The notes under the pieces: model-generated
The model's input: only the letters and a program-made list of their open reading frames with translations
What the model was told of the DNA's origin: nothing
Database searches by the model: none
Made by a program: the position numbers and the translations under genes
Shown here: positions 3,113 through 39,326 of the stretch, in pieces
How the letters are laid out: the number at the start of each line of letters is the position of its first letter
Numbering within the stretch: position 1 is the stretch's first letter
Assembly (NCBI GenBank): GCA_964525595.1
Contig: CAZGHF010000004.1
Coordinates: forward strand, 1-39,326
Length of the DNA: 39,326 nt
DNA from: an uncultured Candidatus Saccharibacteria bacterium
Lineage (GTDB): Bacteria > Patescibacteriota > Minisyncoccia > UBA6257 > GWB1-50-10
Direction: 5' to 3'

Positions 3113-3482
3113 ATGAAAATTTTGGTTGTGGACGACTCGGAAGCCGTTCGTCGCGTTACCGTGAGATTCCTGAGGCGGCTCGGCTTTGAGGAGTATTATG
3201 GAAGCCGGGGATGGAAAACAGGCTCTGGAGATCTTCGACGATTCCTTTGATCTCGTGATTACCGACTGGAGCATGCCGGAAATGGACGGCATCGAGTTCG
3301 TGAAAACACTCCGTGCCCGGCCGGACGGGGAGAGAATACCCGTCCTCATGACGAGCTCTAACAACATGCCCACTGATATCGCTTCTGCGACCAAAGCGGG
3401 TGTGAACGGCTACATCGTCAAGCCGTTTGAGCTCGAGGCATTCCAGAAGAAGATTAGGGAGGTGCTCTCGCAGTCCGGGTGA
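3113..3482 (+). pseudogene. CheY-like single-domain response regulator with a +1 frameshift
   Basis: ATG 3113 MKILVVDDSEAVRRVTVRFLRRLGFEE continues in another frame as IMEAGDG..DLVITDWSMPEMDGIEF..AGVNGYIVKPF; one extra base near 3193. Confidence 0.8.
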
Positions 3483-36854: not shown

Positions 36855-37535
36855 ATGACCATTAAAGACAAAGTCGTAGTGATAACCGGGGCGAGTCGGG
36901 GACTGGGCAAGGCGTTGGCCGCTCTTTTTGCAAATGAAGGCGCAAAGCTGGTTTTGAGTTCGCGGCCGGGCAAGGAACTGGAGAAAGCGGGCCGGGAGCT
37001 GGGGGTTGAAACTTTTCCGGCGGATGTAACCAAGGAAGATGAAATAGTTAAGCTGGCGGACTTTGCCCTGGAGAAATTCGGCCGAATTGATATTTGGATT
37101 AACAACGCCGGGATTTGGATGCCTCACGCGCTAATAGAAGAAATGGACTGGAAGAAGGTGCATGAGCTTGTGGAAGTAAATTTGTTCGGGACGGTATATG
37201 GTTCAAAAGCGGCCTTGATTCAGATGAAGAAACAGCAAACCGGAGTAATAATAAACATTATTTCGGTAAGCGCCCTTGAGGGCCGTCCCGGTTCATCGGG
37301 CTATTGCGCGAGCAAGTACGCCGCCGTCGGTTTTACCAAATCGCTCCGCCTTGAAGTAAAGCAAGACAACATTAAGGTATTAGCAATTTATCCCGACAAG
37401 ATGAAAACAAATTTGTTTGATGAGAAAAAACCGGAAAACTACGGTGGATTTATGAGCCCTGAATTTGTGGCGGAAAATTTGCTTAAAAATCTTAAAAAGG
37501 ACAGTCCGGAGGAGGAATTGATTATCAGGGGGTGA
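36855..37535 (+). CDS. Short-chain dehydrogenase/reductase
   Basis: TGASRGLG, NNAG, YCASK. Confidence 0.93.
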   Translation: MTIKDKVVVITGASRGLGKALAALFANEGAKLVLSSRPGKELEKAGRELGVETFPADVTKEDEIVKLADFALEKFGRIDIWINNAGIWMPHALIEEMDWKKVHELVEVNLFGTVYGSKAALIQMKKQQTGVIINIISVSALEGRPGSSGYCASKYAAVGFTKSLRLEVKQDNIKVLAIYPDKMKTNLFDEKKPENYGGFMSPEFVAENLLKNLKKDSPEEELIIRG

Positions 37536-37558
37536 TTTTCTTGTGTTATAATAAGCCC

Positions 37559-37804
37559 ATGAAGGAAAAAATGCCTGTTCCCAGCGAATCTGGAGAGGAG
37601 CAAGTGGAACTCTTTGATGAGGACGAGATTACAGATGCCAAGAAAGAGACGCAGGAAGAGCAGGCAGAAATATTTAAACAGGGTGAGTCTGAAGATCCTG
37701 ACAGGGATATGAAAAAAGTCCTCGCGCTTATTGCCGAGTCCGATGCCAGGATAAAGGCGGAAAAGAAAAGAAAACAAGGCAGGAAATCCCGAAAAACAGC
37801 TTAA
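37559..37804 (+). CDS. Hypothetical highly charged protein
   Basis: ATG 6 nt after TGTTATAAT; acidic N-half, basic tail. Confidence 0.5.
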   Translation: MKEKMPVPSESGEEQVELFDEDEITDAKKETQEEQAEIFKQGESEDPDRDMKKVLALIAESDARIKAEKKRKQGRKSRKTA

Positions 37805-37854
37805 GGCACTTCATTGCCCCTCTTGTCGGATTAGAGGGCGAATTATCTATGAAC

Positions 37855-37975
37855 TTGACTTATTATTAATAATATGTTATTCTCTAAGAATCGAGGCTGA
37901 ATCTCGATCTGACTGCTGAACAGTCAGTAAGACAACGTCTCCGGGCTGAACCGGAGCAATTCTCTGAAGGAGTTG
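37855..37975 (+). promoter_or_regulatory. Promoter plus structured leader with four CUGAA-loop hairpins
   Basis: TTGACT-17-TATTCT; hairpins at 37890-37908, 37909-37927, 37939-37956, 37957-37975; the last contains the GGAG RBS. Confidence 0.7.
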
Positions 37976-37979
37976 TACC

Positions 37980-38687
37980 ATGCTAAACGCAGGGATGTTG
38001 TCCAGGTTCTTTCGCATCACGGCCTACGTCATGTTAGTGATCGGACTGGTCGGATTCGTGGCCGATGTCACGACCTGGTTCGGGCACGAGTGGAGCGATA
38101 GGTTTCCATTTACCACGTTCGGGCACGAGTGGAGCGATAGGTTTCCATTTACCACCCATCTGGGGGTGGGGTTGCCACTGGGTGTTCTCGTCTTCTTCTT
38201 TAACCAGAAGCTCGGGCATGCGGCCTACTGGTTCCTGGTCTACGTTTGGGCCAAGACCTTCGGTATTCCGTTCCACTTCAGGTGGCGGGACCAGGAACAT
38301 GTCAACGAAGGTCTCATCAACCAGGCCATGCTCATTCAAGAACTGCATGACGAGCAGCACTCTGTCCGGCAGGCGTTCTCGAAGCTTGAGCGCAACGGTA
38401 AGGGAAATTCCTACCAAGCCAAGGAACTCGGGAGACGGCTGAAAGAGCTCAACCGGAAGGTCGACAGGTCCTTCAACAGGTTCTACTTCTTGAGGGACGT
38501 CGCCTGGGCTGCCGGCTACACGGTCGGCCTCAGCATTTTCGCCTACCTTGAGGAAGACGGGATGGCCATCCTCAGGGCGAGTACGGCCGAGAGGAATCGA
38601 CCTGACCGGGTCCTGGTGTTCGACGACGACATCGCGGGTGGGAAGACCTGGATCAAGACCACCATGAAGGTGGCTCGCAGACGGTAA
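37980..38687 (+). CDS. Hypothetical membrane protein with coiled coil
   Basis: AAGGAG RBS, N-terminal TM segments, GC-rich codon third positions, own terminator. Confidence 0.7.
   Translation: MLNAGMLSRFFRITAYVMLVIGLVGFVADVTTWFGHEWSDRFPFTTFGHEWSDRFPFTTHLGVGLPLGVLVFFFNQKLGHAAYWFLVYVWAKTFGIPFHFRWRDQEHVNEGLINQAMLIQELHDEQHSVRQAFSKLERNGKGNSYQAKELGRRLKELNRKVDRSFNRFYFLRDVAWAAGYTVGLSIFAYLEEDGMAILRASTAERNRPDRVLVFDDDIAGGKTWIKTTMKVARRR
38078..38155 (+). repeat. Perfect 39-bp tandem duplication
   Basis: GTTCGGGCACGAGTGGAGCGATAGGTTTCCATTTACCAC x2 (FGHEWSDRFPFTT x2). Confidence 0.95.
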
Positions 38688-38704
38688 GGTCGTCAATAAG
38701 CACC

Positions 38705-38748
38705 GAGTCCCCGCACGATAGCAATATCGTCGTGCGGGGCTCTTTTTT
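38705..38748 (+). terminator. Rho-independent terminator
   Basis: CCCCGCACGA...TCGTGCGGGG stem followed by T6. Confidence 0.75.
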
Positions 38749-38852
38749 GCCCTCTAAATAAAGCCTCTAAATCGCTCAAAAAGCCAGTTTTTAAGCTTGT
38801 TTTTGGGGTTTTGGTATGATACAATAATAGTGCCCGAAAGGTGGGCGTTTTT

Positions 38853-39326
38853 ATGTCAAAAAAGGCGAAAAAAGAGGTAAAAAAGGAGCCAAAAGGACGG
38901 AAAAAATCCTCCTCTACGGCGGACGAGGAGAGAGCAAAGAACAATCCTTCTTACAGCGCCAAGGATATTTACGTTCTTGAGGGGCTGGATCCGGTCCGGA
39001 AAAGACCAGGAATGTATGTTGGTTCAACCGGGGTTGACGGCTTGCATCACCTTATTTGGGAGGTGGTGGACAATTCCATTGACGAGGCGATGGTTGGATA
39101 CGCCAAGCGAATTAAGATTGAGCTCTTGAAAGGCGGCCGGGTAGCGGTAACGGACGACGGCCGGGGAATTCCGGTTGACATTCACAAGCAAACGAAGAAA
39201 TCCGCGCTGGAGACGGTAATGACTACCCTCCACGCCGGCGGAAAGTTCGGCGGCGAGTCATACAAAGTCGCCGGTGGTTTGCACGGCGTAGGCGCTTCGG
39301 TAGTGAATGCCCTCTCGTCGTATTGC
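38853..39326 (+). CDS. gyrB: DNA gyrase subunit B (5' part, runs off window)
   Basis: Manual translation: [69 protein letters not shown]. Confidence 0.95.

Follow-up and report, generated by a model that had tools for sequence, protein, structure and literature searches.

The last part of the analysed DNA, a stretch of 39,326 nt from an uncultured Candidatus Saccharibacteria bacterium (assembly GCA_964525595.1, contig CAZGHF010000004.1, hereafter the window), contains a leader of four tandem hairpins which all show the word CUGAA in their loops. The leader lies between a sigma-70-type promoter and ORF X, an open reading frame (ORF) encoding an orphan membrane protein. Coordinates are window positions, the leader is on the + strand, and the genome of the window (G000) is an assembly of 29 contigs and 677,015 bp, with 44.2% GC and 95.5% completeness, whose size and gene content point to an ultra-small bacterium resembling those of the candidate phyla radiation. 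The stems share no common sequence, all of them pair and the loop is fixed: this array is beyond chance and is the core of the finding, an observation which is confirmed and statistically robust. Our preferred reading, a tentative one which falls just short of an even call, is that the leader is a cis-acting translational operator of an acquired orphan membrane-protein gene and that its loops are read by a trans-acting factor.

Every element described in the first-pass annotation, the promoter, the hairpins and the ATG of ORF X, was located where it had been placed (Table 1), and its description of a real structured leader immediately 3' of a good promoter agrees with both the fold and the promoter score (9/12, with an extended -10, TGt). 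The loops had been reported as four CUGAA pentaloops: CUGAA is indeed contained in all four, but the loop of hairpin 3 (h3) has six nucleotides. The pentaloops are mostly in the context G-CUGAA-C, and three of the four copies of the word read GCUGAA. The hairpins (h1-h4) form two abutting pairs, with units 19 and 18 nt apart and 11 nt between the pairs. The transcription start is predicted at about 37889-37892, at the foot of h1, and h1 would then occupy the extreme 5' end of the predicted transcript. As had been proposed, the Shine-Dalgarno sequence (SD) is inside the last hairpin: GGAG (37969-37972), located 7 nt ahead of ATG 37980, is the start of the 3' arm of h4. The minimum free energy fold of 37885-37990 consists of exactly the four hairpins (-31.8 kcal/mol, z -2.46), and 4 of 200 shuffles were equally stable. 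On the opposite strand h4 reaches only -0.9 kcal/mol, vs -4.0 kcal/mol on the + strand, because its U.G pairs become C-A. Since the three G.U pairs of the leader function solely on the + strand, the structure belongs to this strand, which is that of the promoter and the ORF. When a longer segment was folded (-62.3 kcal/mol, z -3.05, 2/200 shuffles equally stable), positions 37931-37939 paired with 37994-38002 in a 9-bp helix, GACAACGUC with GAUGUUGUC, and inside this predicted long-range helix lie h3, h4 and a further small hairpin that covers the AUG. A consensus scan of 37885-37980 detected no terminator-like site on the + strand, and no tandem repeats were found within the leader. A separate sponge sRNA, which had been offered as another possibility, is unlikely, with no terminator between h4 and the ATG 4 nt downstream.

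The frequency of the word CTGAA itself is not enriched in the window (96 matches vs 92.8 expected). Both strands of the genome show 61 CTGAA-loop hairpins with a stem of at least 5 bp, and four of them are contained within 87 nt at the leader. When all loop 5-mers were scanned with a span of 120 nt, the leader was the sole cluster of at least four hairpins with a common loop 5-mer in the genome; one further cluster has three hairpins, and in 10 shuffled genomes (second-order Markov) no cluster of at least three loop-sharing hairpins arose. Aligned as rows, the four hairpins pair in 26 of 27 cells, the single unpaired cell stemming from the register of h3, and all seven pairs change on both sides, a result equalled by none of 500 shuffles. 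CTGAA is the only invariant block among the four aligned units, with loop letters fixed 5/5. Fold and alignment thus bear out the earlier description of stems that are unlike but all pair around an invariant loop. The same counts weigh on an explanation by structure alone, which would have the hairpins stabilise the 5' end of the mRNA, throttle translation or act as a thermometer with no loop-reading factor, their loops being alike through unit duplication or through good folding of the pentaloop. We consider it unlikely. After a duplication the stems would have diverged at 7/7 pairs while the loops stayed fixed at 5/5, the reverse of what is expected of unconstrained loops, and CUGAA loops are not otherwise favoured in the genome, which contains three such hairpins with a stem of at least 7 bp, two of them in the leader. 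No ROSE or other thermometer family matched either. What speaks for structure alone is the place of h1 at the extreme 5' end of the predicted transcript, the weakness of h4 (-4.0 kcal/mol), in which two U.G pairs involve the SD, the enclosure of SD and AUG by the long-range helix, and the fact that neither a partner protein nor a regulon was found; weak G.U-type pairing over the SD, as in h4, is also a feature of fourU/ROSE-type thermometers. Elsewhere in the genome, the strongest other CTGAA hairpin has a perfect 11-bp stem (contig C1:31250-31276). The other three-hairpin cluster, with loop TTTTA, is on contig C26 (4,281 bp; e.g. 339-408 and 1120-1247), which is unusually rich in hairpin clusters and may contain a structured RNA gene or low-complexity DNA.

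The comparison set for conservation consisted of the window, the metagenome contigs L003 and L004, and one contig from a second study, which together represent three or four close lineages. L003 and L004, the only contigs obtained in a metagenome scan with ORF X, carry the same gene arrangement as the window. The leader (95 nt) shows one difference in L003 and three in L004, the promoter (30 nt) one and two, and the segment 37855-38040 (186 nt, from the promoter through the leader to 61 nt into the ORF) four and five, respectively. The flanks are more divergent from L004: 85/681 in the short-chain dehydrogenase/reductase (SDR) gene (pS 0.35) and 30/273 in the gene of an acidic protein. With L004 as baseline, the leader has thus changed more slowly than the neighbouring coding sequence (binomial P(<=3 of 95) = 0.0016; P(<=5 of 186) = 2e-6). 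Substitutions in the leader break no pair: L004 converts the G.U of h1 to G-C, h2, h3 and h4 are invariant in the three sequences, and the L003 substitution, at 37928, is in the linker and outside the long-range helix, within which the sequences show no variation. The contig from the second study matches 37909-38033 with five differences (two of them placed, at 37984 and 37988) and is unlike the window beyond 38033. Beyond codon ~20, ORF X shows patchy divergence, with a dN/dS of 0.755 (dS 0.17) vs 0.16 for gyrB and 0.14 for the SDR gene. Judged by these alignments, a conserved block of promoter, leader and 18 codons appears to be joined to a fast-changing ORF body; the pairing of codons 6-8 with the linker offers a reason for the conserved early codons. 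In G002, of the same genus, the acidic-protein gene is directly followed by the gyrB promoter without any of this, and the ~950 bp present in the window are therefore an inserted self-contained unit, or cassette: promoter, leader, ORF X, which is its only gene, and a terminator-like hairpin.

A covariance model of the leader (R1) was run on 151 genomes, and six alignments were inspected. Among the 150 related genomes, including three of the same genus, no second leader was found, nor were elements like h2, h3 or h4; two weak matches, one of them to an h3-like hairpin in L008 (E 0.002 per genome) and the other in L013, were regarded as chance. Most matches in the six inspected alignments rest on a palindrome, ATCGAGGTTSAACCTCGAT, which in most cases has TT/AA and runs of A/T on its flanks; of its 19 positions h1 shares 17, and the L004 version of h1 shares 18. 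The palindrome (TTATCGAGGTTSAACCTCGATAA, 19-23 bp) is present unchanged, in one to five copies, in 6 of the 95 other genomes of the family and in L007, which belongs to another family, and its copies are always intergenic, near gene ends or starts. A diverged copy, TATCGAGATTCAATCTTGATA, is located on contig C2 of G000 (3338-3358, - strand) and shows a compensatory G-C to A-T change in its arms, so that G000 holds relics of the element in addition to h1. On this resemblance, h1 is probably descended from the palindrome or converged on it. As to the nature of this element, a bidirectional terminator, an operator and a mobile palindrome all come into question. Two copies at one locus adjoin a Y1_Tnp gene; within the family no association between the two was found (Y1_Tnp in 3/6 palindrome genomes vs 46/96 overall), and G000 shows no match to Y1_Tnp (PF01797). 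A relation of the repetitive extragenic palindrome (REP)-RAYT kind was rejected for this lack of co-occurrence. The first-pass annotation had noted neither the likeness of h1 to the palindrome nor the long-range helix and the inserted cassette.

These data bear on the possibility that the hairpins are relics of palindromic interspersed DNA, REP-like or terminator-like, left at the edge of the cassette and with no regulatory role. The agreement of h1 with the palindrome, the unchanged intergenic copies in seven genomes of two families, the pair of copies beside a Y1_Tnp gene, the diverged copy on contig C2 and the fact that the cassette is an insertion all fit such an origin at the DNA level. 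Even so, we judge it quite unlikely, because nothing like h2-h4 is present in the related genomes, the G.U pairs make the fold strand-specific, the block is more conserved than its flanks, and Y1_Tnp is absent from G000 and does not co-occur with the palindrome. Furthermore, all four loops have C where the palindrome has T, so that the palindromic centre is broken in the same way four times, giving a non-palindromic 5-nt loop. As for the mobile genes themselves, IS200-like Y1_Tnp genes are common in the tiny genomes of this family, with up to nine matches in one genome. In L007, region 1200-1900 is a 700-bp AT-rich intergenic stretch in which the palindrome is accompanied by two further hairpins centred on GTTGAAC and by CCATAGTTCA as three direct repeats, in the manner of iterons.

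In the operator reading that we prefer, the four hairpins would be the ~90-nt 5' untranslated leader of the ORF X mRNA and would act in cis on its translation. The SD is paired in the weak h4 (-4 kcal/mol), and the predicted helix between the linker and codons 6-8 would close a three-way junction around SD and AUG; with the SD in h4 and the junction around the AUG, the default state would therefore be poorly translated. One pentaloop on four unrelated stems is what would be expected of an array on which a trans-acting factor docks at several points; this factor would most likely be an RNA-binding protein, dimeric or tetrameric, that reads the loops. By binding at h3/h4 it would hold the SD hairpin closed, and translation would be repressed; activation through a remodelled junction is the less likely outcome. 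We infer the existence and nature of the factor, the sign of the regulation and transcription from the promoter, and it is the anatomy of the leader that suggests protein binding. Since the cassette encodes ORF X alone, one may speculate that ORF X controls its own expression by way of the basic, helical part that lies in the cytoplasm, or that a host protein serves. A bolder form of the proposal appears doubtful to us: that the leader is a new RNA code in an ultra-small bacterium like those of the candidate phyla radiation, with the CUGAA pentaloop displayed four times, in two pairs, for an oligomeric RNA-binding protein not known so far, and with a conserved expression module on a spreading cassette. 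One candidate reader would then be the cytoplasmic helical domain of ORF X, in an autoregulatory circuit, and operator, promoter and 18 codons would drive a fast-diversifying membrane protein which spreads as a self-contained cassette.

Several points weigh against a regulatory operator. The transcript itself is deduced from sequence, h4 alone is weak, and no binding factor was identified: the cassette has only ORF X, CsrA was not found in the genome, and the ANTAR search, whose control was silent, gave no match. There is no sign of a regulon, since 6 of the 61 CUGAA-loop hairpins are within 15 nt of an ORF start, a share equal to the all-loop background of 10.4%. The sequences compared represent no more than three or four closely related lineages, between which 26 of 27 pairs are invariant, and they therefore offer no orthologous covariation. 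Baseline divergence of L003 is low and the evidence from this contig weak, with a P of only 0.046 at a baseline of 5% assumed from the gyrB comparison; moreover, a common recombination tract could be an alternative source of the conserved block. Finally, the likeness of h1 to the palindrome hints at a DNA-level origin of at least this hairpin.

Readers of the loops other than a regulatory protein were also considered. The loops could be cleavage or decoy sites of an endoribonuclease with specificity for CUGAA or GCU in single-stranded RNA; cutting within the loop of h4 would then free the SD, and the leader would sense the activity of the RNase. RNase toxins favour loop sites, the leader presents the word single-stranded four times, three of them as GCUGAA, and PIN-domain and other toxin-antitoxin genes are present in these small genomes (G002, G016). 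No candidate RNase of such specificity was found, however, and we know of none that is specific for CUGAA or GCU loops, which makes this explanation very unlikely. Alternatively, the loops could pair with another RNA, namely with the UUCAG that tRNA-Leu(CAG) carries in its anticodon loop (positions 32-36). With the loop sequence UUCAGGG, this tRNA is the only one of the 46 detected by ARAGORN with UUCAG in its anticodon loop, but any loop bearing CUG matches tRNA-Leu(CAG) by definition. A 5-nt loop can hardly offer all five bases to a kissing helix, and neither a T-box-like platform nor an Rfam T-box match was found. A UUCAG hairpin inside ORF X (38273-38285) does not help, as it has a stem of only 4 bp and an amino-acid change of L003 falls on it. 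We regard pairing with the tRNA, too, as very unlikely.

The product of ORF X is, in line with the first-pass annotation, an orphan membrane protein with hydrophobic helices, no significant family and very few homologues. Comparison with Pfam, PADLOC, PHROGs and NCBIfam gave no significant match (none below E 0.026 in PADLOC and none below E 0.019 in PHROGs), and the sole pointer to toxicity is a non-significant hemolysin-like match (E 0.019). Its AlphaFold model has a mean pLDDT of 57.8, too low for a fold search, and its Atlas matches are unnamed clusters only. P0001, with 74% identity, was the single close relative obtained from 5.8 billion proteins. A HMMER search of 1.84 billion representatives gave one true remote homologue, P0003 (25% identity over 184 aa), which is encoded on a 5,574-nt contig; P0002, P0004 and P0005, from the same search, were rejected as spurious matches to repeat-rich surface proteins. 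Within the group, ORF X was sought in 61 relatives and found in G000 alone, being absent from the other 60. Among 401 genomes of the phylum only two short matches of 16-18 bits were obtained besides G000, and among 401 genomes of the order one of 19 bits, none of which was counted as a homologue; a stretch with 29% identity in an Agromyces genome was regarded as chance. The ORF has a GC content of 56.9%, in the top 0.6% among equal-sized windows of the genome. Its 39-bp tandem duplication sits in the loop after the first hydrophobic helix, is missing from L003, and is the point at which run contigs break.

At the left edge of the cassette, the hairpin that follows the stop of the acidic-protein gene shows two changes in L004, 37823 T>C and 37833 A>G, which are compensatory because the positions are the two sides of one pair. 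L004 also keeps, in its 1133-1190 region, a 35-nt stretch with a T run that is lost in the window, and read-through into the leader is therefore possible. Two 12-nt inverted repeats bracket the cassette (37831-37842 and 38746-38757, 11/12 complementary); such a repeat is estimated to be at about chance level for 1.5 kb, but its location suggests insertion scars. The word GCC(C)TCTAAAT is repeated at the right edge. The acidic protein has 60-91 aa, is very acidic and shows a Lys/Arg-rich C-terminal tail; internal indels vary its length between strains, and neither the window copy nor the G002 copy belongs to any Pfam family. Downstream of the cassette, the gyrB leader (38821-38916), conserved in G002 and L003, contains a hairpin (38829-38849) just ahead of the start codon and shows a weak match to the ylbH leader (20.8 bits vs a gathering score of 50, E 0.13).

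Table 1. Positions of the leader elements, of ORF X and of associated features (window coordinates unless a contig or locus is named).
Feature	Position	Strand	Description
Sigma-70-type promoter	37855-37883	+	TTGACT 37855-37860, 17-nt spacer, TG 37875-37876, TATTCT 37878-37883
Conserved block	37855-38035	+	Promoter, leader and first ~18 codons
Hairpin 1 (h1)	37890-37908	+	7 bp, closing pair G.U, loop CUGAA, -5.8 kcal/mol
Hairpin 2 (h2)	37909-37927	+	7 perfect bp, loop CUGAA, -8.4 kcal/mol; abuts h1
Linker	37928-37938	+	11 nt, between h2 and h3
Hairpin 3 (h3)	37939-37956	+	6 bp, loop GCUGAA, -10.6 kcal/mol
Hairpin 4 (h4)	37957-37975	+	7 bp including two U.G, loop CUGAA, -4.0 kcal/mol; weakest of the four
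ORF X	37980-38687	+	235 aa; no known family; low-confidence model with about four hydrophobic helices and one long helical hairpin
Predicted long-range helix, 3' side	37994-38002	+	Codons 6-8 of ORF X
Tandem duplication in ORF X	38073-38155	+	39 bp, 13 aa (FGHEWSDRFPFTT) repeated
Cassette (approximate extent)	37805-38757	+	~950 bp; GC 54.2% vs 44.2% in the genome
Hairpin after the stop of the acidic-protein gene	37816-37839	+	Remnant of the terminator of that gene, left cassette edge
Terminator-like hairpin and T run	38709-38748	+	10-bp perfect stem, closes the cassette; not listed in the consensus terminator scan
Acidic-protein gene	37532-37804 (window); L038:2019-2201 (- strand)		Upstream of gyrB in G000 and G002
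Palindrome loci	L006, L007, L009-L012, L016-L036; e.g. L007:1506-1524, L006:1550-1589		

Reiterated loop words on variable stems are the target code of the best-understood RNA-binding regulators, such as CsrA, ANTAR proteins, iron regulatory proteins (IRP) and phage coat proteins. The array shows this anatomy very cleanly, with a loop word and in an organism for which no regulator of the kind is known. To our knowledge, bacteria with genomes so small lack most of the classical post-transcriptional regulators. With these missing and CsrA not found, an operator that works would be a sign of some RNA-binding factor not yet described, and it would be a short, synthesisable bait for finding it. Its reach is limited: as far as could be searched, the element precedes a single orphan gene in three or four closely related lineages, and at present it is a curiosity with a clear experimental handle and not a general mechanism.

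The leader had been regarded as unrecognised, with an Rfam search proposed as a check, and this search assigned it to no known family: at the gathering score, Rfam 15 shows only two tRNAs in the whole window, and at E <= 10 five weak matches in 37000-39000, none overlapping 37885-37979. A whole-word full-text search of the literature, the sole basis for this statement, found no description of a leader with CUGAA-loop hairpins. T-box leaders have a specifier codon in the internal loop of Stem I and an antiterminator with a bulge that binds the tRNA acceptor end, whereas the CUGAA leader consists of four simple hairpins and has no Rfam T-box match. Type III toxin-antitoxin systems (ToxIN) contain near-identical direct RNA repeats, a terminator and a gene for a ToxN-like endoribonuclease; the units of the leader share the loop alone, without tandem repeat or terminator, and ORF X shows no PADLOC match below E 0.026. 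REP families have many near-identical copies per genome and are tied to a RAYT gene. Like them and like bacterial interspersed mosaic elements (BIME), for which hairpin clusters in intergenic DNA are typical, the leader is such a cluster, and its h1 resembles the palindrome; unlike them, it has unrelated stems, a strand-specific fold, one array in the genome of the window and no Y1_Tnp. With regard to thermometers, the SD pairs with a UUCU stretch, in part by two U.G pairs, in a hairpin of -4.0 kcal/mol, with no Rfam match to ROSE or fourU.

Closer in design are the systems in which a protein recognises the loop. Iron-responsive elements (IRE), the targets of IRP, combine a fixed loop with stems that vary, occur singly or in repeated form, and block translation from the 5' untranslated region; they belong to eukaryotes, and their marks are the CAGUGN loop and a bulged C. 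The CUGAA leader has neither of these and no Rfam match. The operators of the MS2 and PP7 coat proteins and the boxB of lambda N are small hairpins with a specific loop bound by protein, and the MS2 hairpin, located over a gene start, represses. Their loop sequences and bulges differ from those of the leader, and the comparison with boxB is one of loop sequence. No phage context was found: viral contigs contain no relatives of ORF X, and no PHROG matched below E 0.019. A pattern of four loops at fixed spacing gave at least 274 matches at at least 127 loci in viral contigs, and was rejected since none of those listed has three or more hairpins and the inspected ones are coding repeats of Pro-Glu type.

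The first-pass annotation did not recognise CUGAA as a CsrA or ANTAR site, and the defining features tested of both fail in the leader. The targets of the ANTAR proteins EutV, NasR and AmiR are pairs of small adjoining hairpins, of which a protein dimer recognises the terminal loops and not the stems; each loop comprises six nucleotides, the first being A and the fourth G, and the second hairpin competes with an intrinsic terminator (PMC3369931). The two abutting hairpin pairs of the leader are similar, but three of its loops have 5 nt, that of h3, GCUGAA, has G at position 1, and no terminator follows. G000 has no match to the ANTAR domain (PF03861), in a search that was silent in all 14 control genomes as well. 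The CsrA protein (PF02599) was not found in the 95.5%-complete G000 with a search that was positive in three reference genomes. The CsrA/RsmA leaders show several hairpins with one short loop word, the last of them over the SD, where the ribosome is blocked (PMC4894983, PMC13443453). The loops of the present leader are CUGAA or GCUGAA instead of GGA, which is present only at the junction of loop and stem in h4, within AAGGAG. In its layout the leader is nevertheless like that of the CsrA targets: it reiterates a loop word along the RNA, and its last unit is placed at the SD, with GGAG in the 3' arm of h4.

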